64,000 nucleotides of DNA from a virus, in the IMG/VR virus record IMGVR_UViG_3300024336_000009, positions 7,795 through 71,794 of that record; one strand, 5' to 3'. The notes under the pieces were generated by a model. The model was given only the letters and a program-made list of their open reading frames with translations, searched no databases and was not told the DNA's origin. The translations under genes and the position numbers were made by a program. Below, in pieces: positions 443 to 63,370 of the stretch; the stretch's first letter is position 1, and each line of letters starts with the position of its first letter.

Positions 443-1162
443 TTATATCAAGCTTTCAAATTTTAAATCCACATTAAATACTTCCCTGTCCAGATCAATC
501 ATAAACGACCACCATATCCTTTCAAAAGAATGTGCATACGTCCTTGTATTTAAATAGGCGTGAATAAATTTGTCATATTCAACTCCATACTTTTTGATAT
601 GATGAAATATATCTTCAGACCTAGCCCAAAACATGGCCGCCTGATGAAATTTCCTACTAAGGTGTCTTAATTCATATTTCCCCTTCAATTCATTCATATA
701 TTGTTCTCGTCAACCCCTATGTATTGATCCTGTATAACCTATCATTCCCACATTATCACTTTGCAAAAAATGGTTGTGAATATCTTTAGAATTTAATAAC
801 AACGAATCCAAATTTCTTTCCAGTAGATTTTCATTTTTAAGAGATTGCAATTTTATAATGAAATCATAAACCGGCCCATTTTCAATGATACTTTCCATCA
901 TCTTAAGCGTTCCATATCCATCTTGACCAACATTATTTTCATTGAAAGTATATGTTTTTTCAGCAATGGTTTCCAATGCCGATAAACATTCATCCTTTTT
1001 AGAAAAATCGGGAATTTTTGTCGGGGGGATGGTGTCCAATCCTTCTTCCTTTGGGAAATTTATGTATAAATCAAAATCCAATTCAAACTTTTCAAGCCTC
1101 TTAGCGAATAATGGGTACTGATCAACATACCACATGTGAATCAATATGGCTATCTTACTCAT
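443..1162 (-). CDS. Rhamnan synthesis F-like (RgpF-like) protein, one in-frame TGA (710-712) read as Trp
   Basis: ORFs 710..1162 and 443..697 are in frame across TGA; KIAILIHMWY, YDFIIKLQS and AHSFERIW resemble RgpF-family motifs; ends in TAA. Confidence 0.6.
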
Positions 1163-1592
1163 TTTCTTTTACCCCCTTATCAAATTTTTTGTCTATATTA
1201 TTTTTATTCATTGCCCTGCCCTCATTTGCCACTCGTAACCTCTTTTCATTCCTAATTAGTATATCAATGTCTGGAGTGTCCGATTTCACTTCTTCCAAGC
1301 GAGCTCTATCAGATTCCCCTATATTTACATCATTGAAAATCAAACTATCTAATTCTTCTATAATACCATGTTCATCAAATGTCCTATTTTCCGATATATA
1401 GTCATATTTACCTTTATTAAAAGTATCCACAAATAATTCATCCAATTTTTCTTTTATCAATCCTATCACCATTTCTTGATGTTCAATTTTGGGTGCATTC
1501 CCATCCTTTGTAAAAAAGAAATGCTTTATTCTTTCTGTAATTAATCTGTCCAATAAAGCGGACAATGTGTCTACATTACTAATATATTTCAT
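1155..1592 (-). CDS. DUF4254-like helical protein
   Basis: DTLSALLDRLITERIK resembles the DTIGDLIDKLSI motif of 11969..12274. Confidence 0.5.
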   Translation of the reverse strand: MKYISNVDTLSALLDRLITERIKHFFFTKDGNAPKIEHQEMVIGLIKEKLDELFVDTFNKGKYDYISENRTFDEHGIIEELDSLIFNDVNIGESDRARLEEVKSDTPDIDILIRNEKRLRVANEGRAMNKNNIDKKFDKGVKENE

Positions 1593-2582
1593 TTATACCT
1601 CCCAGTAACTATATAATCCCTTTGTTAATTCGTAACTTGACCAAACCTTTTGGTTCCTTTTTGGTTGAATTTTAGCCCATTCCCACATTTCTAGCAATCC
1701 ATCTTCAAATGAAATATTTTCATTGTAACCTAATATATCCATCGATTTCTGCCAAGTTGAAAACGCCTCATGTACTTCATATCTATTCTCCAAATAAATC
1801 TTTTCTCCAGACCCCATTATATTCAATAATTTTTCAGCAGCATCATTAATAGTTATATTATCCATTCCACCCAAATTTATTATTTGTTGTGATGCTTCTG
1901 GTTTAACTCCAGCATTCCACAATGGTTCCATGCAATTCCCGATATAACTAAATGCCCTCTTTTGGGTACCATCTCCAAACAAAGTTATTGGTTGACTATT
2001 CAAATGTTGATTCATCCATATGCCCAATACATTTCTATACTTATCCCATATATTTTGTTTTTTACCATAAACATTATGTGGCCTCACGATGCAATAATCC
2101 AGACCGTGTTGTTCACGTGCTACCCTTAAATCCATTTCACATGCATATTTGGCAATACCATACGGGTCTATTGGCATGGGAATGTCTTTTTCATCGAATG
2201 GAGCTTTCCCCCTACCGTATGTAGCCATCGACGATGTGAATACGAATCGTTTAATATCGTATTCAATGGCCATATTTATTAATTTCGTAGTAGATATCAA
2301 ATTGTTTTTATAATTATATGACCTCATAAATGGACTCAATCCTTCAGCGGCGTATGCCGCAAAATGGAATATCAAATCAATTTTATGATTTTTGAAAATA
2401 TAATTCAAATTATCATTTATCAAATCTTCCTTATAAAATATCACCGATGAGTTAATATTGTCCAAATACCCACCACTTAAATCGTCAATGCCTATTATAG
2501 CATGACCAGGATGATTATCAGTTATCCAATCCGCCAGATTTGATCCTAACAACCCAGCCACTCCAGTTATTAAAATATTCAT
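1593..2582 (-). CDS. NAD-dependent epimerase/dehydratase (GalE-like extended SDR)
   Basis: ITGVAGLLG Rossmann motif, FTSSMATYG, YGIAK (YxxxK), RPHNVYG. Confidence 0.9.
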   Translation of the reverse strand: MNILITGVAGLLGSNLADWITDNHPGHAIIGIDDLSGGYLDNINSSVIFYKEDLINDNLNYIFKNHKIDLIFHFAAYAAEGLSPFMRSYNYKNNLISTTKLINMAIEYDIKRFVFTSSMATYGRGKAPFDEKDIPMPIDPYGIAKYACEMDLRVAREQHGLDYCIVRPHNVYGKKQNIWDKYRNVLGIWMNQHLNSQPITLFGDGTQKRAFSYIGNCMEPLWNAGVKPEASQQIINLGGMDNITINDAAEKLLNIMGSGEKIYLENRYEVHEAFSTWQKSMDILGYNENISFEDGLLEMWEWAKIQPKRNQKVWSSYELTKGLYSYWEV

Positions 2583-3457
2583 TATTCTTTTCCTTTCTTT
2601 AAATAAATTTCACCATCTATAAAATTGCCACCCAATGGATATTGCCGTTGTACCGAATAAACATCCGTATATCTGGGTAATGTATCCAATACTCCACATT
2701 GATTTCCGATATTCAATTTGGCCTTAGATCGTATGTACAATTGAATTCTAATATCAACGTGCCTCAAATCCATAGCCGGATTTACATAATCGAAATTTCC
2801 GTCTTGTATATCCGTTGGAGCTAGATAAAAATATGGCATTTCATTATCCATTAACAATTTATCTATCAATTGTATATCGGCGTCATCGTGTCTATTGGAT
2901 ATCAGTAAACCGCCAAATTCGTTGTCCCCCACACCAGCTTGGATTATTTCATCACCAAGTTGTTTCTCCTGATCAGACCAATACATTTCTGGTTGAGCAT
3001 CAACCATCTCATCGCCCTCAAATTGCCAAAACTTTAACATCTGTTTAACCAATGGCGTATCAATTTGATTATAAATTCTATAATGATCATGGAATATATC
3101 ACCTTTGGTTGGGTATGCATACTCATCAACATATGGATTATTATCAAAAACCACATGACCCATATTATAAGGATCACTCCAGCTGGGCCAATTCCGTTTC
3201 ATGTCACCAAACACATCTTCAAACCAATCTTTTGTGGGCACTGTGACCTTGCAATTCGGGTACTTTTCTTTTAACAATCGGGGCATCGCTGATATTATCG
3301 ACCAGTCCCCAAATCCAAACGCCGTACGGCATACTACAAATTCCCCATTCTGTAAATATTCATCTGGGATATATGATGCATCATCCTCTGGGAATCCCAG
3401 TTGGTTTACTTCTCCAGCCGAGAATAATTTATTACCTATTATTCTGAAAAATATCAT
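2582..3457 (-). CDS. Glycosyltransferase family 9-like protein
   Basis: GFGDWSIISAMPRLLKEKYPNCKVTV and SKAKLNIGNQCG resemble GT9 motifs. Confidence 0.6.
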   Translation of the reverse strand: MIFFRIIGNKLFSAGEVNQLGFPEDDASYIPDEYLQNGEFVVCRTAFGFGDWSIISAMPRLLKEKYPNCKVTVPTKDWFEDVFGDMKRNWPSWSDPYNMGHVVFDNNPYVDEYAYPTKGDIFHDHYRIYNQIDTPLVKQMLKFWQFEGDEMVDAQPEMYWSDQEKQLGDEIIQAGVGDNEFGGLLISNRHDDADIQLIDKLLMDNEMPYFYLAPTDIQDGNFDYVNPAMDLRHVDIRIQLYIRSKAKLNIGNQCGVLDTLPRYTDVYSVQRQYPLGGNFIDGEIYLKKGKE

Positions 3458-4867: not shown

Positions 4868-5587
4868 TTAATTAATCTCATTGCGAATTCCCTTTTTACC
4901 AACCGCGGTGTATCAAGAATCCACATATCTGATACCTTTTTTCTCATCATATAATATATCTTTAAAATCATATCCCAATCTCAAAAAAATATTAGTAAAC
5001 TCAATTTCAGTATTAATAGCCACCATCTTATCAGGGAAGAATCCATCCAATCCACCAAAATCCCCATGTGGCAACTTACCTTCAACTGAATCAATTTCAT
5101 CTAAATATTTTTTATGAGTTAATCCACACCCATTAAAAACATGGGAATTTTCATGATCAGTATTGATGCCATTGGGAGTAATAAAAGCGACCTTATCAGT
5201 TGGATCATTTAACGATTTATTTAATTCATCGTAACAATCCTTATACCACAACGGCTTATTCAAAATAATATCATCTTCTGTAAAAAATCAATACTCATAT
5301 TCATTTTTAAATTTTTGATACGCGGCATTATATGCCCCATAAGAAATTCCCAGATTTTCTCTATTAATAACGCGAATTTTACCATTTTTTGAAGATTTAC
5401 CATCTATTGATTTTAAAAATTCATCACATTGTTGATTTCCATATTCATTATTAACTACAATGATATCAAATGGAATGCCACCATCCACCTTTTTATGAGT
5501 TTCATAAATATATTTTAATAATTTCATTGGATAATAATACCACGGCCGCATATCCTTTCGTCTGGGGCCGGCGTAAAATGCTATCAC
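4868..5587 (-). CDS. GT-A-like protein or domain with TGA=Trp at 5288 and 4913; possibly fused to the upstream reductase through TGA 5612
   Basis: Fragments join in frame giving YEY-W-FFTEDDIIL and RENLGISYGAYN; terminates at TAA 4868-4870. Confidence 0.65.
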
Positions 5588-5611
5588 GTGACAACATTTC
5601 GGGGATTTATC

Positions 5612-6319
5612 TCAATTGGAGTTTTCATCATCTCCCATAAATTTCCTTAATTTCGTTAAGTCCATGCTCACATCGGATGGCATAGTATAATGAAATTTCT
5701 CATTGATAGGCATAACGTCCGGTTTGGTTTTTTTGGCCAAATCGTACATAGTTTTCAATTTGGTCCCGACATTATATACTCCATCGGCTTCACCTTCAAT
5801 TAAATCTACCATAATTTTAGCTACTTCATTCACATAATCGAAATTTCCAATTTGATTTATATATGCACCATCATATTCAAATGGAGTTTCCTTATGAGTT
5901 CCCCTAATTAATAAATAATTGGGCATTTTCAATTGAATATACGCGTCTGATAATAATTTGGTGTATCCGTACCAATTTTCACAATGGACTGGAACGTCAC
6001 TTTCTGATGCATTTGATTCTGAATTGGAGTAGATATAATCAGTTGAAATATGTACTAATTTCTGATCCATATTCCGCATATAATCTACCAGATCAACAAC
6101 ACCCTTATAATTCACATCCCAGTGAGTACCGCGGGATTTGTCATATGTATTACAATACGCGATACAATTGACAACTGTACTATAATCCTTTACATATTTG
6201 GAATATGTATTGATATCAGCAAAATCAATTCCATCATTTTTTCGGCTCACATAATCCCAGCCAGTTATTCTCCTCAGTTCAGACCCTAACAACCCGTCAC
6301 CCAATATTAATGGTGCCAT
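5612..6319 (-). CDS. RmlD-like NDP-4-keto-6-deoxysugar reductase (domain)
   Basis: ILGDGLLG, HISTDYIY, YGYTK; ends at a TGA that is in frame with the next ORF. Confidence 0.8.
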   Translation of the reverse strand: MAPLILGDGLLGSELRRITGWDYVSRKNDGIDFADINTYSKYVKDYSTVVNCIAYCNTYDKSRGTHWDVNYKGVVDLVDYMRNMDQKLVHISTDYIYSNSESNASESDVPVHCENWYGYTKLLSDAYIQLKMPNYLLIRGTHKETPFEYDGAYINQIGNFDYVNEVAKIMVDLIEGEADGVYNVGTKLKTMYDLAKKTKPDVMPINEKFHYTMPSDVSMDLTKLRKFMGDDENSN

Positions 6320-7471: not shown

Positions 7472-8317
7472 TTAATCCTTTTCCAATTCAAAATCTTTAT
7501 AATTTTCATTTTGCCTATTTTTTGATATTAACCAATTTCCAGCAACAACCGTATCCATATCTATCCATTCCTGTATCTTTGGATTTCCACATCCATTATA
7601 TTTCAAAAATATCTGGCAGTCTCCACGCTTCATATCGATTGGAACATCAGCGTATTCCCACTTGGGTTCTCCAGTTTTAGAACCTGGAGTATGGAAATGA
7701 TTATATTTTAATTCAGTTCTCCAATTTTCATATCCCAATTCCAATAATTGTAAATTAATACACGCGTTTGGAACTGTCATCATATGCTCATCATATCTCA
7801 AATTATGTTCTCTAATAATATCACCCGATATCAATGTAATTCCATCAGACCAATAAACTTCAAAAGTATCCCTGTCCACAATCTTTAACGATTCGATGGT
7901 GTGTGCTTTTTGAGGATTATACGACCGTTGTTTACCATGCAATCTTGTCCCAAGTGCACCACAATTATCTATATCTTTATATACTGAAATCATTTTCTCC
8001 AACCACAATTCCGTTGTAATAACCAAATCATCCTCTTGATACAAATACCAATCATGATCTTCGATATATTCCATCCCTACATTCATAGCATGTGAAATAT
8101 GACCCCCTGGAGAAGATTCCATTTTTATAACATTTGGATAATCAAAATCATACTCATAAAATTCACGACTTGGGAATGATCCATTTTTTACTAACACCGT
8201 AGTTATTTCTACATTTTCATTTGAATAAACAGAATCCAGTACCATTTTTAACAAATGCATTCTACCAGCCGTTGTTGGTATTACAATCAATACTTTATCC
8301 TTCAAATTAAACCTCAC
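7472..8317 (-). CDS. Glycosyltransferase family 2-like protein
   Basis: LIVIPT, AMNVG, YQEDD. Confidence 0.6.
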   Translation of the reverse strand: MRFNLKDKVLIVIPTTAGRMHLLKMVLDSVYSNENVEITTVLVKNGSFPSREFYEYDFDYPNVIKMESSPGGHISHAMNVGMEYIEDHDWYLYQEDDLVITTELWLEKMISVYKDIDNCGALGTRLHGKQRSYNPQKAHTIESLKIVDRDTFEVYWSDGITLISGDIIREHNLRYDEHMMTVPNACINLQLLELGYENWRTELKYNHFHTPGSKTGEPKWEYADVPIDMKRGDCQIFLKYNGCGNPKIQEWIDMDTVVAGNWLISKNRQNENYKDFELEKD

Positions 8318-9275
8318 TTTTTAATAAATTAATATCATTTTTAACCATTTTTTTAATCATTTCTTCCAATGATGTTTTTGGTTCCCATCCCATGATCCGC
8401 TTCGCCTTTGAATAATCTCCCACCAAATTAAATACGTCGGCCGGTCTCATAAATCTTTCATCCTGTTCAACGTATTTTTCCCAATCCGAAATTCCTATTT
8501 CATTAAATGCTATAGTTAGAAATTCCCGCAATGAATATACATTGCCAGTAGATATAACATAATCATCGGGTTTGTCTTGTTGTAACATTAACCACATAGC
8601 TTCAACGTAATCTGGCGCATAACCCCAATCCCGTTTTGTATCAAGATTGCCCAAATATATTTTATATTCCAATCCCAAATGTATGCGTGCAATACCATCT
8701 GTGATCTTACGAGTAACAAATTCTACCCCACGCCTCTCCGATTCGTGATTAAATAAAATGCCGGAAGCCGTAAACATATCATACGATTCTCGATAATTGG
8801 TAGTTATTCAATGACCATACAATTTTGCCACGCCGTATGGACTTCGTGGGTAAAACTGGGTTTTTTCATTTTGTGGAGTTTCCACATTTCCACCAAACAT
8901 TTCAGATGTAGACGCCTGATAAAATTTTATATTTTTATCATATTCCCTAATAACTTCTAACATCCTTAACACTCCTAAAGCGTTTATGTCTCCCGTATTT
9001 TCTGGAGTATTCCAGCTTTCACCAACAAATGACATTGCCCCCAGATTATATATTTCATCGGGATTGGATTCTCTAACACATCTATACAATGAATTTTGAT
9101 CAGATAAATCACCATTGATAAATGTTATTTTTCCTTCCAAATGATTTGTATTTAATCTATTTTTTCCCGAAGATCGGCGTTCCATTCCATACACCCCATA
9201 CCCTTTGGTTAAAAGGAAATCGGCCAAATAACTACCATCCTGACCATTTATTCCAGTAATTAATGCTCTTTTCAT
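8307..9275 (-). CDS. gmd: GDP-mannose 4,6-dehydratase, in-frame TGA (8808-8810) at a conserved Trp
   Basis: [55 protein letters not shown]. Confidence 0.95.
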
Positions 9276-10505: not shown

Positions 10506-11189
10506 TTAATCTCCTATTGTATAAAAATCGTTTATTTTATAACGATTATTTTTTATGTATCCAATTGAATTCATGTACAATTCAATATTATCATCTTCAT
10601 AATTATTTTCAATTACAAACAATTTTACCCCATATCTATCAATATCAAATCCCCTGATAACATCCAATTCTGTACCTTCGGTGTCTATGGAAATAAAATC
10701 AATTTCTTTGATTTTATCAAATGACGTGCCAGACATTTCATTATCCAAAATTCACGACAATGTCCTCACATTTACATCAACCGTATATTTATCATTAATG
10801 AGATGACCATGATCACGAACAAGTCGTTTGTCTGGAACTAATGAAGTCAATGAAGACATTATATTATTATCACCAACATCAAATATTGTCAATTCTATAT
10901 CATCTTTATTGTCCGATCCACACGCGTAATAACGGATCAATTCCCTATTCCGTTCTAAAGATTCTTTATATTTAATATTAGGTTCTATGCATAGGGTGTT
11001 CCATCCAAGATTTTCAAAATATTTCGTATTCGATCCTCTAATTCCATCGGCGGCACCGACTTCAATGCAAAATCCGTTTGTTCGGTTGGGAAAATATGAT
11101 TCTATTATTTTATCAGTATTCCATTGCCCAAAATACCCACCGCCTTTATAATTTTGTAATTCTTCATTATTTTTATTTACATCATACAT
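10506..11189 (-). CDS. FkbM-family methyltransferase, TGA=Trp at 10752
   Basis: IEVGAADG..SNT, IEPN and IDFISIDTEGTE are joined in frame across the TGA. Confidence 0.85.
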
Positions 11190-12289: not shown

Positions 12290-13237
12290 TTAATTTAAAT
12301 TTTTCATAATATATTCAAATTGTTTATCACCCACATGATATTTCACGGTGTGATTATATCCCGCATTGCCTATTTCAATACATTCATCATTGTGATCCAA
12401 GTAGTATCTAATTTTTTCCTCAAATTCTTCTATGGTTGAATATTCCACAAAATTAACAGCGTCTGTAAATTTGTTTGGCATTAGTATGTTATATTTCTGT
12501 GAAAATAGACACGATTTATTAAATGTGGCTTCCCAAAATCTAGCACAAGTATCTCCTCCACCCCACGCATCTATAACTATATACGATTTCACTATCGCTT
12601 CCTTATATTTTTCATAAGACATTCCAGAGCCAATCAATACTCTATGACCTTCAGATTTCAACTTCGTACAAACTTCAACCACTTCTTTTCTAAGTCCATC
12701 GTTTACCTGACCAAACATACATAATATATCAATATCCTTTTCACCCGAATATTGACTTTTGTATCTATCTACCGCCACGAATGGAAGTGGTATTATGCCC
12801 ATATCGGCATCAATCTGATAACATTCCCTTTTAAAATACCATTGGCAATAATCATACATTTCTTGATTAATTCATGGTTCCCCTCTCCGCAATTTGGGAT
12901 TGGATTTGGAATCGCTCACTTGACCAACATTGGGATGACCGTTGAATGTCCACTCGCTTCCATCAATATATGCGGTTTTATGTGGGGCTCCAGTTTTGAT
13001 TACCATATCATAATCTATACCGGGATATCCACCATTCCGCTTGCCCCATATGGCAAAAACATAATCACAATCTTCGACATGAGATAATACACCCGATTCT
13101 GAATATACATCTTCTTCACGAATGCCATTACCCAGTTGAGATGATATTATTTCCACACCACATTTGTACATTCCTTCAATTACAGATTCCGCCAAATAAT
13201 CCAATTTTCTATCGGGTGGGATTACAACTATTTTCAT
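12290..13237 (-). CDS. CgeB-like/GT1_2 glycosyltransferase, TGA=Trp at 12872
   Basis: MKIVVIPP start; C-terminal RFWEA..KIRYYLDH..IGNAGY..H typical of CgeB-like proteins; fragments in frame. Confidence 0.7.
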
Positions 13238-13238
13238 T

Positions 13239-18464: not shown

Positions 18465-18522
18465 ATTTTTCTTCTCCATCCGTATATATATATGTACACC
18501 CTCTAATATATATATCAGGGGA

Positions 18523-30059: not shown

Positions 30060-30061
30060 TC

Positions 30062-35126: not shown

Positions 35127-35136
35127 TTATTTTCTC

Positions 35137-46540: not shown

Positions 46541-46957
46541 TTAGTTTTCTTTAGATTCTCATTCGGTTACATTAATGATTGTATATATCCGGGTGGGTAT
46601 TTTAACAAACCCAGAGGAGTTCGTAAGCAATAAATTATTTCTGAATTCGTCTCAATCTATTGGAAATGTCTTATCCAGTACCCCATTGTTCTTACGCCTA
46701 ATCACTTCATTAAGAGCGTTAATGGTATATAGTGTATTGGATTGTTTTTTTCTATGCAAGGAAATGGTATCCTTATTTGTAAGGTAATTTTCAGTATCCT
46801 GTTCTATATTGTATGTGCATATCAACTGGTGGAAATTGTCTTCATTTTGAAACACGTATATTTTATTGAATAGTATTTCATGGTAATCAATGATTAAATC
46901 TATCGTATCGTGCAACTGATTCCGTTTTGTGAATGAGCAAAGTAATTGCGTGTGCAT
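46541..46957 (-). CDS. Hypothetical phage protein, TGA=Trp at 46652 and 46559
   Basis: TISLHRKKQSNTLYTINALN; reads through to TAA immediately before the terminator. Confidence 0.65.
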
Positions 46958-50824: not shown

Positions 50825-53272
50825 TTATAATGCATCCGGAATAATATAACCCAATCGTCTCATTAATTCAGCTTTCGTTTCCGAGTTCTCAGTCCTTTCA
50901 ATTTGTTCTTCATTTTCGGCCTTTTCATCTTTTAGGAAATTTCGGTCGGATTTTTCCGTGTCAAGTTGATCCCTTACGGATATTCTCATTTTTCCCACAA
51001 TGGAAGTTTTTCAGCTGGACGCGTCCAGCTCTTGTGTAGAACTCATAACCTGAAATAATACCCGATCTTTATATTGGGAAGGCAGATAATTGCTTGTAAA
51101 ACAATTTCCTGGGAAAATCCCAGATATACCATCCAATGTTAATGAGATTTCCAACGCGACCATGGGATCAAAATCAATAGAAACCGATTCTTTTTCATCG
51201 TATGTAATTAAATATTTCATGACATCCAATCATGGAGTGTCCTTGGTATTTAATAAATTCCCCCAATATCCATAAACACTGCCAGTCAATGTGTCTTTAT
51301 CTTCCGATTTGAAATTAAAATCAAAAAATTGTTTTTCGGTAAATTTCAACGTATGTATGCTTTTGACAGTTTCGGCGGTTTCATCATCGTGATTTTCTGA
51401 ATCTGACCCTTTTTTATCAATGGCCTCAATACCAACATCGGGACCACTTTCCGTATCAAATTTGGAATTTACCCCAGCGGATTTATTACCAAATTTATCA
51501 AAATTTCAACCGGGTTTAATATCATGAATCAGCCCGTCTTTATCACCAGGAGCACTACCCAATTTACTAGCAGCGACAATTTTAATGCCTCCCATTTGGG
51601 AAGGTGACGTAATTTCCTCAGCATTATCCCACATCATCGCCATAGCCATTTCATTTGTAATTTTAGCATTTAATGATTGTGCAGTAACAATACTATCCTT
51701 ACCCATAACTGGGAAATGGAATAAACCACCAGTAACAGTTTCTCAATATTTATCCAATTCACTCGGAATTTTAAGCAACGATTTTACAGATTGTTTGGTA
51801 AGATTCATGTCTACAATCTTTAATGTACCGGGTCTATCTGGTGCAGATACCAATTGCAAATCTCATATTCCAACATTTTCATTCATTCTCTCAAACAATT
51901 TTTTAAGTGCACTGGTGATATCAGACGCGTCATTGAATACATTTGTTATCAAATAATTCCAATTGAACATTATATTTCGCATGTATCCTATCTTTAAATT
52001 TTTATATTCAGCTGGATCATCAGTTACTTGGAACGTTGGGAAATCCTTATTAAAATCCCGCAATATCGGATGAACATCAGTAAGATCATCCACATTTCTA
52101 TGCGATTGTCCAGGTAAAATAAAAAATTTATAATCTGGAGAAATCAATTTATCATGACTTGATATTTTAGTTGATTGTCATGCCAGCTGATCTGGGGGCA
52201 ATCCTTCAGTTTCAGCCAATCCAGCCGTTTCGATTGTGTGTTGATCCCCGTTGTCTTTTAATATAGGTTCTATACTTCGAATTGAACTTATTACTACACC
52301 GTGAGCGTCCACTTTGCTTAAATATTTATTTAATATATTATCTTCTATTCATCCCCATGATATATATAATTCATGTGATCTCGGATCGGCACCGGTAGAT
52401 GGTTCAAATCTATTCTTAATTCATTGTAATGGCATTCCTTCATTGCCAATTCCACCATCATCCACATGTTTAAATTTTTCAAGTTTGGTTGAAATGTCCC
52501 TTAGAAATGTTTGGAAATTTTGTTTAAGTTCAACTTTTCGGTTATCATTTTTATCCGTTTTTGCGACATTTATATTGTCCACTGGAGTAATTCGTTGTTT
52601 TAATATGTCTAATCCCATTGAAGAAATATTGGTAGTGCAATCGATTCCCCCATCGTCTCTAGTCGATCATTCAAAATTGGTTACGAGACCAATCATACCA
52701 TCATAAGTTCCATTGGAATTAAATGAATTTTCCATCATTTTTTTATGTGCCAATATCATATCTGGGCTTTTTTCATTTATATCATGTAATACCATATCAT
52801 TGTCCGAATATGAATATCCCCATTCTAAAATAACAGTTCTACCCGGTTTTAAAAAATATGGAGTATATTTGGTAACATCGTCAAATGACCAACAAGTCCA
52901 ATTAATAGTAGCAGTACGCAATGTCGCCAATGTATTTTTATATTCAACACTAATACTTTTTACTCCAGGCATTGGTCTGTACTGATTATCACCAGTATTT
53001 CTAGGAGAATTATACATATCCTCAAAACCATAATATGCTTCTTGATTTTCTTTTAACAATCCCCCACCTATTATTACAGGTTTATCATCTTTGATAAGCC
53101 CAACCATCCGGATTCAAGTCGATTTTGCAAAAATGTTATTTGCGTCGGCTTTCTTTTTCCCAGTACCATCGGTCTGCGGACCTTCAAATAGTATGCCTTC
53201 TCTATTTAACAACTTTTGTCGTCTGTGCAATTCCGCCCTAATTTTACTATGTATGGGTTGTAGATTAATCAT
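50825..53272 (-). CDS. Baseplate/tail-hub-associated protein (815 aa) with 10 TGA=Trp
   Basis: Single frame from ATG 53272 to TAA 50825; ST-W-IRMV, RPMPGVKSI, ATINWTCWS, LEWG, ISWG-W-IEDNIL, LTLDGISGI.PG. Confidence 0.75.
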
Positions 53273-53580: not shown

Positions 53581-56500
53581 TTAATCCTCCCACGATGGAT
53601 CAGACCATGAAAATGGTCCATCGCCCTTTCCAGATTGCCCCATTTCCGCGAACAATTCCCTTAAATCCATCCCATCGGAATGCCTATCGGGATAATTGCC
53701 ATTTGGATTATCCAAATATGCAGTGGAACTTTTATTATTGTTATTTTTATAATCCAGCCAATCCAAATCATAATGCTTACCCTTTTGAGCCGGCTTGTGT
53801 TTTCCAATGTATTTATACCCAACACTAACACTTAAATGCTTGGGCAATTTGAAATGATCATCCAATTCCCAAGTGGTGTTATCTTCTACCGTTATTGATA
53901 AGCTGGTTAAAAATCCTGGAGCCCCCGTTCACATATTACCAATGGTCAATTCGGCAAATGGAGATACCATTCGTTCCATATCACTATTGGAAAAATCTTT
54001 TCAGCTGGGGTAACACATTCCAATTAAATAATTCATTTTTTCTCATAAAATTGGCAGTTCCTGTTTCGTCTTTGGATATACATTGAAATTGAAACTTATT
54101 TCCCTGTCCACTCCAGCGTATGTATATACTTTATCGGGGCGGCCTATGTATTTTTCTTCTGATCAATCTGGTGTAACACTATCCGATATCCCAGACAGAA
54201 TGGCTCTGAAAATGATTCATTTATTATTGACCACATCTTTAAATTTAAATGGAATGAAATCTCGTACTTCTAAATTGTTAATTTCCTTTGGCTCTTTTCC
54301 ATTAACACTCCCGTATGGTAGGGCATTAACTTTGTCAACCTTACTTGTCATAAGCTTACTCGATCCCAAATCGGCCTTAATATGACTAAAACCAGCCTTT
54401 TTCAAACCGGCATTAAATGTCTCGGGCCTAAAGAAAAATCCATCTCCGGTTGTTTCAGACCCATCTGTAAATTGTCTAAGAATTCCAGCATTACTTTGAT
54501 CTCCAACATCAATTACAGCAAATTTTTCATCATCACCAAATTGATCTTTTCGAATTCTATCTATCTCTCTACTTGCTTCCGCATTATTGCCCAGTAGACT
54601 TCCCAGTTTTGATAATAACGGATTTGTTCCCGGATTATCTATAATTGCTTCTTCTTTTCTGAAATGATAATTCAATGAATTTTCACCCCAATCAACAAGT
54701 TTTGTATCTAAAGGATTGGCCGCTTCGAATTCCAAAACGGTAGATGATACAAGTGGTGATCCAGTATTCCAATGTCGGTTGATATGAACTGTAGGCGTTA
54801 TAGAACCCAATGACAATGGATTCCATGTTCTAGTTTCTTCCTTAGTATTAAGGGTCTGCAATGCCACTTGTTTTATTCCAAATAGAACACCTTTAGTCGA
54901 AAGTATAAATTTGCCGATTCTGAATACATCGGCAATAGTTCTTGATATGGATGTAATTAATCCACCACGTACTATGCCCTCATCAAAAGCGCCTGTATTA
55001 CCCAATCCATATTTATCTCCTATATCATGAAGGTAAAATGGTTGGTTAAATCCTATATCATTATGTCCATCTCCAATTCTATAATTGAGTTCATCACCGT
55101 CTTTAAATCCACGGCCGTAATAATTATCCAAATTTGTAGCATCATCATTTCCCCACGAATCTTTATGCAAATCTTTTAAGCGTGATTGATCACCACGTGT
55201 GTTATTTGTTATTGAGCTGCCCTCTCCAATTTTGGCCACGGAAGGAGAATAAGCCTCCCCCCTATAAAAACCAGTATTCAGAAATTTTGGTGAATTTTCA
55301 TTCTGTTTGCCCAATTGAAAATTTCTAGTATATGGTTCCATTGTCAATGTGGTACTGGTATCAAAATATTGAATTCTAGATCGTCGTTTGTATGTTTTTG
55401 TATATGACTTGCCTATACTGAATGTTTTAAACCACGAATCCGTAGGACTTGGAGTATCTTCTTTTGTAGGTAAAGCGATATTGGAATTCAATGACGACAA
55501 TGCTTCATATGCATGCCCAAATATATCCGTAAATGTCATGTTTATTGCATCGCCGGTTTTAAATCTACTGTCTTTAATTGGTCCAAATAAGCTGGCAAAT
55601 TGTAATGTTGATGTAGGTTTAGTAGACGCTTTATTTGGTAGGTATGTTCCAGCCCAATCAATGTTTTCATCCGAATCGGTCAGTATTCTAGTCTGTAATC
55701 CATAATTACCAACAAAACTATATTGTTTTGGAATATGAAATGTAGGTTGTTTTCCATCCACAAATGATGTATTGATAGCATCTTTAGTTGTGGATCATAC
55801 TGGAGCAGTCGCTATTCTAGATAATTGTCTAGCTCTAATAGTAGTTGGATTGTGTGCGGCCAAATTGACATCACCCTCAATCCAATGCAATGAATCTTCA
55901 AAATCTACCTCTGGATAATGATCAAAAAATGTTCGGTCTGTTTTCTCATATGATATTGGAACACCAGTATCAGCTATGTCTCCTGTCATATATTGAACAG
56001 AATCTGCAAATGGAATCGCCGTGTGATGATTAAATGCCGCTCTAGTTTTAGCGTATGAAATTGGCAATGTTATCGCCGGAGTGTCATAAACAATATCAGG
56101 ATTAGTTACCGATGTTTCAATTGGAGGAGCATATCTACTAATATAACTGGCAATTGGAGTAGTCATAAAATCACTCCCATGTGCGCCCAATGTACTGGGT
56201 GTCGTATTTATTGCCGTTTGATATGTTTCACCAGCGGTTGGTCCAGTTAATGTAATCATACTTACATTATGAGTTAATGAATCTGAAAATCCCTGCAGAT
56301 TACTTATGTTATTAGCAATTGGAGTAGTCATAAAATCGCTGTCATATGCATTAGGTGCCGCAAAGATGATAGGTTCCAATGTATCTAACCCCACAGTATG
56401 TCTGGTTGTACTTAGTGCCATTGTGTCATTTGGTGCCAGTTTTGAGTCCCCGTATGCCATATTAAAAGTAAATCCAGCGGGCAATGTCCCAGGTCCCCAT

Positions 56501-56835
56501 TCTCCAGTAACCCCACTAAAATAATTAACAGGACCAGTTTGAATACCTTCACCAGTTGGGTGTACCTGACTGCCCACCGCTTCCAGCATATTAGCTAATG
56601 CACTTTCATTGGGTCTATCAAATTCTTTATTTCCAGTAACAGTATATCCATGACCATCATTAAATGATTGTGCATTACTTGAATTACCAACTCCAGTATC
56701 AAGTTGAGAATGCTCAATTGAATGTGCAGGCATGGATGGAGTTTCATTTGATAATCCACCATGGCGTCCACCATGTTGACTTAAATTGTCTCCAGCACCA
56801 GCTGATAAATCACTTGTTAAATCTATAATACTCAT
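53581..56835 (-). CDS. Large tail/baseplate protein (1084 aa) with a C-terminal tube-like domain; 6 TGA=Trp
   Basis: In frame across TGAs at 55795, 54217, 54163, 54043, 54001, 53929; DFIPFKF, FRAILSGISD..PD-W-...YIGRPDKVYTY.G..REISFNF. Confidence 0.75.
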
Positions 56836-59537
56836 TAGTCCGATACTCCCAGTTCTCCAACTTTACCAGTCAGTTTGTTCATCAAATCCTTATTTTGTTT
56901 TAATAATTCCCTATTTACACCCACTATTTGAGTTAATAATTTATTCGTTTCGGCCATATCAGTCGCTTGATTAACAGTATTTCCATCTCCAGAAACAGTC
57001 ACATCCGACGATCCACCTATTCCAGTCAATTTGTCCAATACAGGCAAAAATGGAGACAATAATAATGCCCCGCCAGCCAGTTTTGCCATACCTCAACCAA
57101 GTTTACCAAATGCTTCTCCCAAGCTTATTATGGAAGATGTCATTGGGGCCAATTTTGTAAGTATAGGTTCAAAACTAAGAAATCCAGCAGATAACATAGT
57201 AAATCCAGTTCCTATCGCCTGAATAGCATATCCCAATACCAATAATCCGCCAGCCATTATTACCATTGCTGCCGCACCAGCCAAAATTGCCACAGTTCCA
57301 ACACCACTAGACATTATTGCCCCCAATGCTAATACCGCTACTACCAATCCACCCAATGCTAAAGCGGCCTTACCCAAACTGGGCCAATCCACTTTATTAA
57401 ATACCACCAATGCCTGTGCGGTTATGTATAATGCACCAGCCACAATTACCATTGCTGCAGCACCAGCCAACATCTTTTTGGGATTAATTCGTTCCACGAA
57501 TCCAAGTCCAGCCTTACCCTTTGGCTTTGGAGCTTTTGCAAATCTTCCTTTAGCATCTCTTAATCTGCCAGCCTTATCTGTTGATAATCCACCCTTTGAA
57601 GAGGCCATTCCAGATATCAAACCTTTCATTTTGCCCAACTTTGTGAGCATTCCATTGCCAATAATTCGTTTTCTGAATAATAAAGCAACCGCAGCGAGAG
57701 CTGTCAGGCTCGCCAATAATCCTGGAGAATATTCATACAGTTTTTTAATACCAGTGACCAATAAACCAACGGAGGCCACCATCAATGCAAATTTTGCCGC
57801 TATCGCAATAACTGGTAGTAAAAGTACGCCGACTGTTATAGCTATTATTTTTCAATTTTTAACCATTCATTCTAATGCTGGAGCTATATAGTCAGTTATC
57901 CACCCACTCATCGTTTCCAATATTGCAGGTATTTTTTCACCAATGGACTCTAACATTGGTTGAAATCTTTTCTTTAAAGCCCCAGTAATGTCGTTCCACG
58001 CGGTCCCGATATTCTTTACCATTGCAGCGTGTTTTTCTGCAGCGGCAGTTTGATCGGTTGACATATGATTTAAATGCTCTTGATTCAATACCATTTTTGT
58101 TAATTCTTCAACTCCCACACCAAATGCTGCAGCTAATTTTTTCCTTTGGAAATACTGCATATTTTCCAGTTCCGCTTGACTACCAACTTGTTTTAATACC
58201 TCTCGTTGCATTCCTGCCAAGTCACCTGTAAATGCCAATTGTCTAGCTTTATCCGTATTGATATTTCTGCCTAATAGAATTGATGCTTCCATTGAAGATT
58301 CGATTGAACTTTCAAAATCCAATAGACTTTCAGCCATTTTTGCAGTCGTTGCAATACTCAATCCCAATTTACGAGCTTCGATTGCCGCTGTAAATAAATT
58401 GTCCCCACCGTCTTTTGCGTATGTGGCGAACATTTCGGTGTCCCCAGCCAAATCTTCCATAACTGCCGCTGGAGCAACTTTGTTTGCTCGAGCCAATTCA
58501 CCTACCATTGCCAAACTATGCATTGATGCTGAAAAGGATGAACCTGATACAGCCATCATCATTTCAGCCAATTTAGCTGTAGATTCGGCGGATACCCCAT
58601 ATTGGAATCCCAATAATTTCATTTTCATTAAATTTTGACTTGTCGCTATATCAAGTGAACCAAACTCAGCCAATAGTGCTTTCGCTTCCTCTCGCGCAAA
58701 CAATATGGCCGGTCCAAATTGAATTAATTGACCATATGAAAATCCAGTTTCATTACCGAAATCAACCATTTTCTTACCCAATGCTACTAACCCCACCCCT
58801 ATAGCCAAAATGCCAACTTTAAGGGCCGTTATTGGATTGGTGACAATGGATATCAATTTGGCCTTTATATCACCCCATTTTTCCTTTTGAGCTTCAATTT
58901 TTGAATTTAATTCTGTATTTTTTTTGTTTATCAAATCATGCATTTTTGACTGTGCTTGCATACTTTTAACATTTTTGATTTGAGCGTTTATCAGTTTAAT
59001 ATTATTTTCAACACCTTGTTCCGTAATATCATATTCACCGTCGGCCAGAGATTTTCTAGTTTTCATCAGATCGGATAAATGTGAAGATAAATCAACCGTT
59101 TCAAATTCTTCAGAATTTAAATTCTTCCGGTTGTGTACCATAGCCAAACCCAAATCCATAGTTTCACTAGATAAATCTCGTATTTTTTGCAGTGATTCCG
59201 ATTCCTTTAGGGTAATTCCTTGCAGAGTTGCCATATTGTCAGTTCAATTGACTGTATTTTGTAGAATCTTTTGTTGTGACTTGCTAAGATTGGCAAATTT
59301 TTTCCCGAGATTTTCTATTTGAGTTTCGTTTGTAGCGGTGTTTTTTATTTTTCTCTTTAATTCGGCATTTTGCTTTTTTATATTTTGATATGTTACTTCT
59401 TCGGCCGCACTACGTTTTTTACCCTTTTCTGCCAAAGTATCGGCCTTTTCAATTTGCTCATCAAGCTTCGTGATTTGAGCTCGCATTAAATCAAGTGTTT
59501 CTTTGGCCTCAATATTTCTAGAAGTTCGTTTTGCCAT
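56835..59537 (-). CDS. Tape measure protein (900 aa); 4 TGA=Trp (59244, 57867, 57852, 57093)
   Basis: Helical Ala/Gly-rich with hydrophobic repeats; LLDFESSIE..MEAS.L.GR.IN..KARQLA; four fragments in one frame. Confidence 0.8.
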
Positions 59538-60106: not shown

Positions 60107-60340
60107 CTAAGTTTTCAGTTGTGGACCACGCGCAATACCCGAATTCTTATTTTGGGCTTTATCGTGTGCATCTTGTTCATCTTTGATAGATTTTTGAATC
60201 ATTTTTATATAGAAGCGGCGGAGCCATACGGGCATGTGATACACCTCAGTATGATTGAATCCGCCGTTCCCATGATAACACAAAGTATAGATTTCTTCGT
60301 GTACGGTTACTCTATACTCTGGCGGAAGGCCAAAAAAACT
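60107..60340 (-). CDS. Start-less ORF in the +1/-2 frame; putative frameshift extension of the upstream chaperone
   Basis: FFGLPPEYRVTVHEEIYTLCYHGNGGFNHTEVYHMPVWLRRFYI...; begins at a T7 run. Confidence 0.6.
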   Translation of the reverse strand, partial: SFFGLPPEYRVTVHEEIYTLCYHGNGGFNHTEVYHMPVWLRRFYIKMIQKSIKDEQDAHDKAQNKNSGIARGPQLKT

Positions 60341-61085
60341 GGACCGTCATAGGGACAGTCACCTCCTCGTCATGAGCACACAATGAACATTCAAAGTTGT
60401 ATGACATATCAACATCTGGTGTGATATTTCTAAGGTGCTCTCTGAATGGCATTGAATCTACTGCCAATAGGCTGGTATCTACAAAGTTATTAATGAAAGC
60501 TTGTTCTGAATTTCCATTGACACTTGTAATGACCTTTTTCAGTCTAGTAGTGACATCACTTTCAACGTCATCTTTGCTAATTTTCTTTAGACCCTTGAGT
60601 TCGGCATCAATTTCACGTTCATCCTTTTGGGTGAGCATTTTGAATTTAATATCAATTTTCGACTTTGGCAGTGTTCAACTGAATTCATTTACTCCTTTTT
60701 CAAGACCATCAAAACTGACATCCTTTTCAACTAATAGGGTTAGATCGACACTATCCTTATTATGTTCTGAACATGCAGGACAATCGACTTCAAAGTTATA
60801 ATCTTTGCCATATCCTAATACGCGGGCCGCTACCATCAATGCATTTTTGTCTCCAATAAGCATTGAATCTAAATCAATAGATTTGTCAACTACGAGGGAC
60901 TTTAATAACTTGTCAATAACCACCCCCCTTCTTATTAAGTTTTGTGATGTTAAAATATCTTCATCTTTTGCGGTCATATACCGCATCTCTAATTCGCCTG
61001 AGCTCAACGGATTATCTTCTGCATAGAAGAATCCTTTACTCGGAAGCGAAACAATTTCGCTAGGAAATTTCATTTCTTCGCTCAT
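60312..61085 (-). CDS. Baseplate hub/tail assembly chaperone (T4 gp26-like), TGA=Trp at 60675
   Basis: LPSKG, YMTAKDEDIL, GDKNALMVAARVLGYG, CPAC, CSLC, FFWP. Confidence 0.75.
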
Positions 61086-61135: not shown

Positions 61136-61624
61136 TTATTTAAATTTCTTTGCATATTTAGACCAATTTTTCTTGGCGTGTTTCACAACTTTATCAAATC
61201 TTTTAGCATCTTCTTTTTGACGTTTTTTATTATCGTCGTGCCAATAATCACCCCACTCAATCCCATCATAATTTAATTTAAATGGAACTTTATCTACCGT
61301 ATAACTTCTTTCTTTGCCATCCCACTCACTCATTGAAATTTCACATTTGCCATTAAGTTCAACTCCAAATTGAAGAAATTTCTTTTCACCCATTTGAAAG
61401 CTTTTCCATAAATATATTCTAGTATTTCCTACTGAACCATATTGTTCATTTTGCATGTGCCAACCAAGCCCAGCCCCATGTGTTTGTTGGTATCTAAGTT
61501 GCATTTCATTGTCATTGTATGATTGAATAAGATCATCTGGAAGTGGTTTGGATTTTTTTGGAGCGTCCTTAATACTTGTAAATTTCGGACCTTCCATTAA
61601 AGATGTGAGCTTGATGTGCTTCAT
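61136..61624 (-). CDS. Hypothetical protein, possibly head-internal
   Basis: MKHIKLTSLMEG N-terminus. Confidence 0.55.
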   Translation of the reverse strand: MKHIKLTSLMEGPKFTSIKDAPKKSKPLPDDLIQSYNDNEMQLRYQQTHGAGLGWHMQNEQYGSVGNTRIYLWKSFQMGEKKFLQFGVELNGKCEISMSEWDGKERSYTVDKVPFKLNYDGIEWGDYWHDDNKKRQKEDAKRFDKVVKHAKKNWSKYAKKFK

Positions 61625-62052
61625 TATCTAATCCATTTGGGGATAGATGGTCAGCGACTTATACGTGCATTATCTTTATTTTGCCAAAGAACGTCATCAA
61701 CATCCCTTTTATCAAACCCAGTCAATTTCTTATATATTTTTTTCCACTCTTTAGTTTTGGGTTTAAGTTCTTCACCATTAGGACCTATTAAATATCCTTC
61801 CAATGATTCAAGCTCTCAACCAGGTAATCCTCTCATTTGTATATGATCGGATGAAACCATCGGTTTCTTTTTCTTGCCTGAAGCTTTCCCAGCCGTAGTA
61901 TCTTTTCCACCTACCCTGACTTTTGTAGAATCACGCATTTTATGCTTCTCTTTATATGCATCAAATTCGGCTTGATCTTTGAAATCGATTTCATCCAATT
62001 CAACAAAATTTTCTCATTGTTTAGCTATTGATTCATATAATCCCTTTTTCAT
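61624..62052 (-). CDS. Hypothetical protein sharing its N-terminus with 62246..63370; 3 TGA=Trp (62014, 61816, 61651)
   Basis: LYESIAKQ-W-ENFVELDEIDFK..FDAYKEKHKMRDSTKVRVGGKDTTAG. Confidence 0.7.
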
Positions 62053-62054
62053 TG

Positions 62055-62243
62055 TTATTCCCCAGCTTTTGCTTTATATGCTCCAGCGGCATGTTCAAAA
62101 CCATTACCACCTGCAAATGTGATTAAAATCCATTTGGTTAGTTCAACCCATAATGTTGCGGTCAGTGCGCCAATACCTAACAGTCCTGTTGCGGTGGCGA
62201 ATACCACTGCTGCTATTAATACTTTTCTATTTTTTAATTCCAT
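62055..62243 (-). CDS. Small two-TM membrane protein, holin-like
   Basis: NRKVLIAAVVFATATGLLGIG..WVELTKWILITFAGGN; AAGGA RBS. Confidence 0.5.
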   Translation of the reverse strand: MELKNRKVLIAAVVFATATGLLGIGALTATLWVELTKWILITFAGGNGFEHAAGAYKAKAGE

Positions 62244-62245
62244 GA

Positions 62246-63370
62246 TTATTTCCTTTGTATAAATGATTCTCATCTTTTGGAGATTGATTCGTATTTTTCT
62301 TTGCCACCTCTGGTTAATGTTGTAAATGGTTTCCCCTTTTCAGCGGCTTTCATAGATTTCATACCAATGGCCTTTTCATTTCGCGCGTGATAGTCTGGAT
62401 ATGGTTCGTGATTTATAGTAGATTGTACTTTATCTCCTGGTTTCCAATCCAATAAATCTTGAAGATAATTATCGGGATTATTTTTATTGGCATGTTTTAT
62501 CAAGTCTGGGTCCTTTTTCAGAAGTCCTTTTAATTCATCTTGATAATGTTTAATTTCTTCTGGGTGATCTGCCTGATACATGTTTGAATAATGATATACC
62601 CCAGACCCATGATCTGTCATTCTACCACCGAATGGGTGTATTCCCTGCCTAATAAATTGCATTTTTCTCTCATCAGTAGTCCGTCTGTCTTCTTCCGGTC
62701 TCCGAACACCCTTATTAAAATCACTCTCACTAGCAAAACTACTATCAGTATCCCACTGCTTTTTATTAGATACCTTTTGACTTATAACTTTGGGATGAAT
62801 ATGTTTAAAATCTTCATCACTTGTACCAATGTGATCTTCCCAGCCATATTGTGCAGCTTTTTTCCAATGCATTTTCAAGGCCGCTTTTACTTCAGGGCTT
62901 TGGGTTCTGGAATCGTGATCGTATTTTGGTTTAAATTTTTGCTTTTCTTTATCAGACATTTTTGAGCCGGATTTGGTTGCAGATTTTTCTTGTGCTTTAG
63001 ATTCTGGATCGAGGCCCGCATCTTTAAGCATATCCCGTTCCCGCTTTTCCAATTCTTTCCAAGGAGTATTCTCAATTTCATCTTTTTCTTCTTGGTCTAA
63101 GTCGTCCCATCTATCTTCTGAACTATATCCAATGTCGTCGTCTTCACCACCACTTTCACCACCCCTATTAAAATCATCATTTGGGTCTTCGGACGCGTCG
63201 CCGGCAGTAGTATCTTTGCCACCCACACGAACTTTTGTGGTATCACGCATTTTGTGTTTTTCTTTATATGCGTCGAAATCAGCTTTAGTTTTGAAATCTA
63301 TTTCATCCAGTTCAACATAATTTTCCCATTGTTTATCTATGGATTCGTATAATTTTCTATCATAGCCCAT
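62246..63370 (-). CDS. Highly charged hypothetical protein; TGA at 62270 read as Trp
   Basis: C-terminal YESISKR-W-ESFIQRK repeats the N-terminal YESIDKQWENYV. Confidence 0.7.

Follow-up and report, generated by a model that had tools for sequence, protein, structure and literature searches.

Mycoplasma and Spiroplasma natively use translation table 4, in which TGA encodes tryptophan (Trp, W), and their phages need no decoder. For phages using this code (code 4), a suppressor tRNA was reported to be detected in 35% of cases in one study (10.1101/2021.08.26.457843) and in 11 out of 73 phages in another (PMC11210395). Outside guts, alternative codes are given for between 0% and 0.65% of jumbo phages (PMC13037316), and some surveys apply 10% coding-density rules (PMC13037316, PMC10746230). 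For a further reassignment, TAG to glutamine (table 15) in crAss-like and Lak phages, proteomic validation has been presented (PMC9523058). The DNA analyzed here (hereafter, the window) is a stretch of 64,000 nucleotides representing bases 7795 to 71794 of the linear, 71,794-bp IMG/VR virus record IMGVR_UViG_3300024336_000009, for which CheckV estimated a completeness of 37%. In this phage, TGA is almost certainly a sense codon for Trp. All coordinates given below refer to the window unless stated otherwise, and all genes described lie on its minus strand, which carries nearly all of the genes.

When TGA was treated as a sense codon, a greedy set of 77 minus-strand open reading frames (ORFs) contained 58 in-frame TGAs in 27 ORFs. 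Curation removed five ORFs overlapping better frames (3034-3222, 13349-13534, 13601-13756, 40053-40298, and 41043-41426), TGAs preceding the probable start of translation (450, 2612, 13300, 43418, and 43403), and two ambiguous C-terminal TGAs (43904 and 46085), which could still act as stops. The remaining 41 in-frame TGAs in 17 genes are identical in number to those counted in an initial annotation made from the letters alone, and the TGAs singled out there (8808-8810, 19295-19297, 38976-38978, 62014-62016, and 62270-62272) are all in frame. Every curated gene reaches TAA or TAG, with neither codon inside, as had been proposed, and the expected shredding of the tail genes under code 11 was also observed: ORFs called with table 11 are fragmented, while those reading through TGA are intact. 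In the tail region, ORFs with lengths of 815, 1084, and 900 codons hold 10, 6, and 4 TGAs, respectively, and zero TAA or TAG. Frames are interrupted by TGA only, and Pfam and PHROG domains span the TGAs. Furthermore, when the 40 codons downstream were considered, the best coding frame was still the same one at 37 of the 41 TGA sites, compared to 13 of 61 real TAA/TAG stops; the four sites failing in this respect are all located at most 37 codons from the gene end. Coding density of the whole record amounted to 0.902 with code 11 and to 0.931 when TGA was read as sense; treating TAG or TAA in this way gave 0.901 and 0.896, respectively. The comparison of genetic codes proposed in the initial annotation yielded the highest value for TGA as sense, but the gain is small (0.03).

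To determine which amino acid is encoded, homologue columns were inspected with an X placed at every TGA of the queries, which kept the latter from influencing the outcome. In GDP-mannose 4,6-dehydratase (Gmd; 322 amino acids (aa), 8307..9275), the single TGA (8808-8810) had been placed at a conserved Trp, and the column indeed features W in three out of three solved GMD structures among the matches listed (best E value 2.2e-114). For the conserved tail/baseplate-module protein of 815 aa (50825..53272; ten sense TGAs), 69 homologues were available. Individual TGA columns contained W in 64 of 64, 37 of 44, and 37 of 53 residues, a fourth one comprised 42 W, 14 Y, and 13 F out of 69, another one 12 F and 9 W out of 26, and five columns were variable; W53, W202, and W754 were invariant in an alignment of 11 sequences. 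A public protein collection contains this gene product at its full length of 815 aa, each of the ten TGAs being translated as W, indicating that an automated caller has already applied a code with TGA as W to this record. The second conserved tail/baseplate-module protein (1084 aa, 53581..56835) contains six TGAs, five of them within approximately 100 C-terminal residues. Among its 120 homologues, these five C-terminal columns were aromatic or Met (pooled: Y 30%, F 29%, W 23.5%, and M 11%), with Gly outside the six commonest entries and each remaining entry below 2.2%.

The RecA/UvsX-like recombinase (374 aa, 37968..39092) carries one TGA (38976-38978), which precedes its Walker A motif. Its column comprised 74 W, 29 F, 25 Y, and 1 V among 129 aligned sequences from the 150 nearest representatives. 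The initial annotation had described this site as a conserved Trp, which does not hold universally: E. coli RecA features T at this column, and the designation is valid for this RecA-like subfamily only. E. coli RecA was accordingly discarded as a test of the site, being uninformative on Trp. The homing-endonuclease-like protein (phrog_5104; 284 aa, 18920..19774) contains three TGAs (19652-19654, 19394-19396, and 19295-19297). The last of them, previously read as the W of a P-W-NKG motif, corresponds to W in 12 out of 28 homologues (context PPWNKGLT); the column at 19396 was variable, and that at 19654 had one match, a W. Summed mean BLOSUM62 scores over the 18 columns with at least ten residues were 58.8 for W, 26.8 for Y, 19.3 for F, -36.3 for C, and -39.1 for G. 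As controls, the window's own TGG columns behaved alike (W best in 11 out of 19), and its Gly columns gave G in 122 of 155 cases. The columns were mainly W or aromatic, and a predominance of Gly or Cys, which would speak for another meaning, was not seen.

Codon-level comparisons were based on 80 related loci obtained by an alignment-based scan of IMG/VR with the alignment of the 815-aa protein; the related-locus search with the 1084-aa protein alone returned nothing. At window TGA columns, the related loci showed 70 TGG and 4 TGA out of 74 codons, with further columns giving 66 TGG and 4 TGA out of 77, and 47 and 4 out of 62, respectively. For columns of the 1084-aa gene, TGG was found at 72, 47, and 42 of 77 codons. 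No in-frame TGA was present in the same genes of 76 out of the 80 loci, and in these non-recoded loci TGG dominates the window TGA columns; in-frame TGAs were restricted to L002-L005 (four loci of 40-45% identity), where most of them fall at columns that also carry TGA in the window. For the TGA of the T4 gp26-like baseplate hub protein (257 aa, 60312..61085; TGA at 60675-60677, spanned by the Pfam domain T4_baseplate at residues 27-252), the column in 61 loci consisted of 42 TTT, 10 TAT, 4 TAC, 3 TGA, 1 TTC, and 1 TTG.

One of the four TGA-bearing loci is located on a 140,003-bp record, referred to as G001, which is 71% complete and syntenic with the whole record studied here (47-97% amino-acid identity, except for five short or off-synteny matches). 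Best-frame, non-overlapping alignments between both yielded 16,292 codon pairs. Window TGAs (33 pairs) were matched by TGA (13), TGG (12), TAT (3), and five singletons; in the reverse direction, eight G001 TGAs stand opposite a window TGG, and 206 window TGGs stand opposite a TGG of G001. An example of such an exchange is the window sequence QELPIL-TGA-EKMNYL, aligned with QELPILWEKMNYL in G001. Some of the codon pairs are non-coding and do not belong to the 41 curated TGAs, namely the TGA-TGA pairs at 44931 and 41082, located in a promoter -35 box, and those at 15093 and 43933, located upstream of starts. A codon-pair tally including off-frame ORFs (108 TGA-TGA pairs) was rejected as contaminated. 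At the level of single genes, G001 has TGG at four and TGA at one of the six sites of the 1084-aa gene. In the gene for the tail length tape-measure protein (900 aa, 56835..59537; four TGAs, PHROG 167 and 4372), G001 shows TGG at 57095 and 59246, and the homologue columns are weakly informative.

Among the retained genes, 61 end in TAA and 10 in TAG. For homologous gene ends, TGA was the first stop in 52 out of 303 cases in the non-recoded relatives versus 0 out of 20 in the recoded clade. The gene at 46077-46442 reads ...KK-TGA-AAT-TAA, and its G001 counterpart ends in TAA at the TGA column; judging from the sequence, this end looks like an old stop that is now read through by two codons. The trait is common to a small clade (4 of the 80 related loci, including G001) among relatives keeping TGA out of the same genes.

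Additional information came from within the window. The motif YESIxKxWE occurs in three copies, of which, as previously described, one features TGG (63326-63328) and two feature TGA. They are distributed over two neighboring genes, encoding a 142-aa protein (61624..62052; three TGAs), the N-terminus of which is paralogous to that of the next gene product, and a 374-aa protein (62246..63370), whose single TGA (62270-62272) lies eight codons before TAA in the third motif copy. YESIAKQ-TGA-ENF of the former aligns with YESIDKQ-TGG-ENY of the latter. The N-terminal stretches of both proteins are closely similar over about 55 residues, the motif recurring at the C-terminus of the second one, and no homologue of either gene was present in the 80 related loci. 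Altogether, the assignment of TGA to Trp is supported by four independent lines of sequence comparison, namely homologue columns, codons of related loci, TGA/TGG exchange with G001, and the internal paralogue motif.

TGA is a minority Trp codon in the window, accounting for approximately 13% (41 curated TGAs compared to 281 TGGs in 72 retained ORFs, in which uncurated TGAs number 48), and its distribution among genes is uneven. The genes for family-B DNA polymerase (PolB), ribonucleotide reductase (RNR), DnaB, exonuclease, SSB, polynucleotide kinase (PNK), and RNA ligase contain 61 TGG and no TGA; these seven and the RecA-like gene together show a ratio of 1 TGA to 65 TGG. In contrast to this eight-gene set, the tape measure, the hub, and the two large tail proteins feature 21 TGA to 24 TGG (Fisher p = 2.7e-9). 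The contrast is also visible in the replication block (27219..37893), which encodes PolB, a DruA-like protein, class II RNR with an intein, DnaB helicase, and exonuclease according to PHROG and Pfam and is free of in-frame TGA. Besides these low-copy virion and tail proteins, sugar-modification genes and homing endonucleases carry TGA frequently. The recoded codon is enriched in structural genes, exceptions being the RecA-like gene with one TGA and the TGA-free tail tube and major head genes: the gp19-like tail tube gene contains no TGA and five TGG, and in G001 three TGAs were found in the terminase gene and five in the portal gene, as opposed to none in those for DNA ligase and the major head protein, the latter with seven TGG. 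This hints that the most abundant structural proteins also avoid TGA. The base following a sense TGA was A in 20, G in 11, T in 7, and C in 3 cases, and that following TGG was A in 97, G in 95, T in 60, and C in 29 cases.

On balance, we favor an explanation in which TGA encodes Trp, decoding is imposed by the phage in a host using the standard code, and recoding acts as a timing or dosage gate. The host would be a marine bacterium with the standard code, and this part of the explanation, that is, phage-imposed decoding in a standard-code host, is probable when taken by itself. Upon infection, the phage would render UGA readable, most probably by means of a suppressor tRNA with UCA anticodon that is charged by the host tryptophanyl-tRNA synthetase (TrpRS) and may lie on genome sequence that is still missing. 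Genes whose products are required ahead of the onset of decoding, and those for the most abundant structural proteins, would stay TGA-free, so that recoding could gate late, low-copy proteins in time or dosage, as proposed for gut code-4 phages. Whether the decoder is a conventional suppressor tRNA on the missing DNA is an even bet; for a suppressor or another decoder, this location is favored because published phages mostly lack a detectable suppressor and 29% of the G001 genome is unseen. Several observations weigh against the explanation. The initial annotation had pointed to tRNA-Trp(UCA), a release factor, or TrpRS in the rest of the genome, but neither a tRNA with UCA anticodon nor a release factor or TrpRS was detected in the whole 71.8-kb record or the 140-kb G001 record, which are incomplete (37% and 71%, respectively). 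RF-1, TrpRS-class, and cytidine-deaminase domains were likewise absent from both records in a domain search, and a permissive Rfam scan (E value up to 1) of 120 kb of G001 revealed no further tRNA. The tRNAs present are restricted to tRNA-Gly(UCC) and a Gly-like tRNA with a 6-nt loop in the record, and to tRNA-Gly(UCC), tRNA-Gly(ACC), and the same odd tRNA in G001. Since published code-4 phages are mostly without a detectable decoder, its lack does not exclude membership in this group; as none was found, we infer the mode of TGA decoding, as we do for the standard code of the host. Concerning the codon columns, positions 284, 365, 510, and 681 of the 815-aa protein and position 127 of the endonuclease-like protein are uninformative or variable, and F or Y predominates at one of the columns in the 1084-aa protein, where just 2 of 120 homologues feature W. 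The closest homologues may also have been called with TGA as W, which would inflate W counts; the solved structures and the codon-level TGG counts are free of this effect. Finally, the timing gate is imperfect: the RecA/UvsX-like gene bears a conserved TGA upstream of Walker A, and tail-module genes of 635, 429, 195, 100, and 162 aa are without TGA.

Regarding the meaning of the codon itself, other readings fare poorly. That the in-frame TGAs represent assembly or sequencing errors, or that the genes are pseudogenes, has a practically negligible probability, with no point found in its favor. The same TGAs are present in four separately assembled IMG/VR contigs, and contigs with zero differences cover the TGA sites in two DNA and two RNA-library seawater runs; these four are Logan contigs, from which depth, strand, and expression are unreadable, and an RNA library may contain DNA. 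Among the variant places listed, none lies inside a TGA codon. The independent DNA and RNA-library contigs speak against the possibility, raised earlier, that reads would show TGG. Moreover, errors or decay would hardly interrupt frames by TGA only and never by TAA or TAG, with the frame continuing at 37 of 41 sites. A reading of TGA as Gly (table 25), selenocysteine, or cysteine, or as a stop subject to low-level natural read-through, is very improbable as well. The record's only tRNAs are of the Gly type, and in one TGA column of the 815-aa protein G is joint commonest (6 of 53), which would suit the Gly variant. However, the anticodons of the Gly tRNAs are UCC and ACC, none being UCA, the column scores of G and C are strongly negative against a strongly positive one for W, and the TGA columns of the 1084-aa protein contain next to no Gly. 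Exchange with G001 occurs between TGA and TGG (12 plus 8 pairs), while TGA-GGA was encountered once, outside a gene. As for selenocysteine, the Rfam scan of the window (E value up to 0.1) gave two tRNA matches only and no other family, and no SECIS-type family was among the weak Rfam matches in G001. Ten TGAs in one gene would presumably not be passable by leaky read-through.

The question of who supplies the decoding is less clear-cut. If the host natively read UGA as Trp (table 4, as in Mycoplasma and Spiroplasma), the phage would share the host code and need no decoder, in line with the lack of suppressor tRNA, RF1, and TrpRS in 72 kb of the record and 140 kb of G001. In addition, 22 out of 27 cultured table-4 phages are listed as infecting Mycoplasma or Spiroplasma (PMC11210395). 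This main rival, which we regard as rather unlikely, is weakened by codon skew, standard-code relatives, and habitat: TGA accounts for only about 13% of Trp codons in a genome of 36% G+C; its absence from the 61 Trp codons of the seven genes would have a probability of 0.873^61, or about 2.5e-4, if use were even; the 76 related loci are TGA-free in the same genes, with TGA as first stop at 52 of 303 gene ends; and a 6-kb tail stretch was found in 20 seawater or marine runs from 20 studies. Free-living marine bacteria using table 4 are not known to us. As for the three copies of a canonical sigma-70-type promoter, all that they indicate is a bacterial host of the ordinary kind. Alternatively, the phage could make UGA readable without a suppressor tRNA of its own, by altering host tRNA-Trp, disabling RF2, or using the odd tRNA-like gene. 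A UCA tRNA is absent from the 140 kb (71%) of G001, both recoded phages retain the odd gene, the stems of which show compensated changes, records of five non-recoded relatives (67-106 kb) are without any tRNA, and phage modification of host tRNAs is raised as a possibility in the literature on gut phages (10.1101/2021.08.26.457843). This is nevertheless unlikely, given that 29% of the G001 genome is unseen and suppressors are often missed, that the odd tRNA, with a Gly-type acceptor and a UCC anticodon according to the Rfam alignment, cannot pair with UGA, that no deaminase domain was found, and that the records of the five relatives are fragmentary (33-56% complete), their tail proteins showing a distant relationship (23-32% identity). 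Decidedly unlikely, too, is the notion of a widespread marine myovirus clade that reads UGA as Trp by reprogramming host translation, with no phage-encoded UCA suppressor tRNA, RF1, or TrpRS at all. Such reprogramming could involve, for example, an altered host tRNA-Trp or a disabled RF2, and the odd 6-nt-loop gene might possibly be part of it.

The two tRNA loci of the record are adjacent. The tRNA-Gly(UCC) gene (31245..31316), the only canonical tRNA of the record, was called by ARAGORN and by Rfam (51.6 bits) and is not a UGA decoder. The Gly tRNAs are explained by codon supply, the main Gly codons being GGT (490) and GGA (426). The neighboring tRNA-like gene (31328..31399; also at 1333-1405 of L082), with a Gly-type acceptor stem and a UCC anticodon, matched the Rfam tRNA family with 36 bits and was not called by ARAGORN. 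One anticodon-loop position is deleted, leaving a 6-nt loop (UUUCCA), and the T stem contains two U-U pairs. G001 retains the gene, and base changes in its acceptor and anticodon stems are compensated; the tRNA-Gly(ACC) of G001 is also unusual. A pattern search for the odd tRNA matched only G001 and one near-identical 30.6-kb contig and is therefore uninformative on its co-occurrence with recoding. The records of the five non-recoded relatives mentioned above contained no tRNA. A search with the protein at the left end of G001 retrieved five loci, comprising a near-identical 10.9-kb contig, G001 itself, and three more distant contigs; no tRNA was found in the four contigs scanned from this search.

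The remaining genes with sense TGA include several with sugar-related functions. The RgpF-like sugar-polymer synthesis protein (239 aa, 443..1162) has one sense TGA (710-712), corresponding to residue 151, which is spanned by a weak Pfam match (residues 2-217, E value 3.4e-5, 23.2 bits compared to a curated cut-off of 25), and the frame continues. A 483-aa fusion protein (4868..6319; Pfam, PHROG), combining an RmlD-like epimerase/reductase with a glycosyltransferase-like half, contains three TGAs (5612-5614, 5288-5290, and 4913-4915); G001 features TGG at 4915 and TGA at 5290, and no start codon is located between the TGA at 5614 and the conserved beta-strand. The FkbM-type methyltransferase (227 aa, 10506..11189) has one TGA (10752-10754) spanned by the Pfam domain Methyltransf_21 (43-212), with a continuing frame, and that of a glycosyltransferase-like protein (334 aa, 12290..13294; TGA at 12872-12874) joins two code-11 ORFs. 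In a group-1 glycosyltransferase-like protein (531 aa, 16663..18258), for which the Pfam matches are weak, the TGA (18232-18234) lies near the N-terminus; G001 keeps TGA at the same column within the aligned N-terminal stretch. The same column is also TGA in G001 for a small protein of 68 aa (18273..18479; TGA at 18420-18422), the frame of which continues. A NUMOD1/NUMOD3 homing endonuclease (237 aa, 22438..23151) shows one TGA (22987-22989) spanned by phrog_314 (5-236) in a continuing frame. An unassigned protein of 138 aa (46541..46957) has two TGAs (46652-46654 and 46559-46561), and its G001 counterpart, 92% identical, features TGA at 46654 and TGG at 46561. The TGA of the RecA-like gene is likewise kept in G001.

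Genes of the window (35.8% G+C) were annotated by means of Pfam and PHROG. For the virion, they comprise the tape measure, the T4 gp26-like baseplate hub, and the tail tube (gp19-like), and recombination and replication genes include the RecA/UvsX-like recombinase, DnaB helicase, SSB, and exonuclease. Class II RNR with intein, polynucleotide kinase, RNA ligase, and a sugar-modification block were also annotated. PolB showed 41% identity to that of the Microcystis phage Mel-JY01 (190 kb) and approximately 33% to those of T4-like cyanophages and the pelagimyophage HTVC008M. A 6-kb tail stretch was found in 20 runs from 20 studies (at least 84% of sampled words), all labelled as seawater or marine metagenome, metatranscriptomic libraries accounting for 6 of the 20. 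In one seawater run containing the clade, contigs reach lengths of up to 124 kb. Scanning GTDB genomes gave three distant matches (23-28% identity), which yield no host inference for the recoded clade; they lie on contigs of metagenome-assembled genomes labelled Gammaproteobacteria, Nisaea, and Ca. Pelagibacter, fall outside the recoded clade, and could be binning artefacts.

Further features of the window were noted alongside. An intergenic element of 45-60 nt occurs three times on the minus strand (approximately 44950-44890, 41610-41555, and 41100-41040) and can be read as a promoter of the sigma-70 type (TTGACT/A, 17 nt, TATCTT) with a Shine-Dalgarno-like AGAGAGGA downstream; G001 retains two copies or more. 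Within the class II (B12-type) RNR gene (32094-35126) lies an intein (Pfam Intein_splicing 367-678) that includes an HNH endonuclease (HNH_3 478-520). Part of this insert weakly resembles an HNH-bearing insert of the G001 portal gene (G001 8373-8915; 23% identity, 39.6 bits), suggesting possible transfer of the element from one gene to another. A 385-aa protein encoded beside the tRNA genes (30062-31219) matches the Pfam family DruA (PF14236, Druantia defence protein; E value 6.5e-23), and its G001 counterpart is 90% identical. An island of about 5.7 kb (7472-13240), encoding Gmd, the FkbM methyltransferase, and glycosyltransferase-like proteins, among others, is without a counterpart at the syntenic place in G001; nevertheless, TGA is used as a sense codon in its genes, in one case at the Trp column common to the three GMD structures listed. 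Syntenic counterparts in G001 are also lacking for the homing-endonuclease genes at 18920-19774 and 22438-23151. The DNA polymerase gene of G001 contains an extra 1.1 kb between two aligned halves (G001 85057-86142), possibly an intron, intein, or endonuclease insert. Adjoining the tail module, three TGA-free genes (46984-48891, 48908-50197, and 50234-50821) encode proteins of 635, 429, and 195 aa, respectively, for which neither a PHROG match nor a Pfam match above cut-off was obtained; the 429-aa gene is kept in 54 and the 195-aa gene in 71 of the 80 related loci.

The initial annotation had stated that code-4-like recoding is known in some phages, and TGA-to-Trp phages with the same gene bias are indeed in print (10.1101/2021.08.26.457843). 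Recoding of this type, its gene bias, and the storage of the 815-aa entry with W are thus already known, while the lineage and the habitat are new; added to this are the syntenic neighborhood of recoded and non-recoded relatives and the lack of a visible decoder in 140 kb. A literature search for a marine T4-like code-4 phage found no paper within the collection searched. The present data place TGA-to-Trp recoding in a marine phage detected in 20 runs of 20 studies, published work being centered on gut phages. Annotation with table 11 would leave the tape measure, the hub, and the two large tail proteins fragmented and the Gmd and RecA-like recombinase genes cut. Recoding as light as this, with about 13% of Trp codons and a density gain of 0.03, would slip under 10% coding-density rules. 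A recoded clade among 76 standard-code relatives, together with a 140-kb syntenic partner, provides a usable system for studying the onset of a code change and UGA decoding without a visible suppressor tRNA.

Compared to known systems, the phage shares the reading of TGA as Trp with phages of Mycoplasma and Spiroplasma, but differs from them in that TGA is minor and excluded from replication genes, that it resides in open seawater, and that its relatives use TGA as stop. With table 25 phages of Absconditabacteria and Gracilibacteria, in which TGA is described as encoding Gly (PMC10746230), it has in common a sense TGA; in contrast, the columns are W or aromatic here (Gly -39.1), and a tRNA-Gly(UCA) is absent, the anticodons being UCC and ACC. 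The table 15 phages exhibit a stop-codon reassignment biased to late genes as well, yet concern another codon and amino acid, TAG still serving as stop here at 10 of 71 gene ends. A further resemblance is to the TGA-to-Trp phages of human and animal gut microbiomes (Agate and Jade clades, some crAss-like phages; 10.1101/2021.08.26.457843), which are reported with in-frame TGA at Trp columns, TGA in structural and not in replication genes, close relatives using the standard code, and a suppressor that often goes undetected. Unlike these, the phage described here shows no RF1, TrpRS, or Sup-TCA tRNA in 140 kb of its relative, its recoding is light, and it was found in seawater and marine metagenome runs, with a PolB related to those of Mel-JY01, T4-like cyanophages, and HTVC008M.

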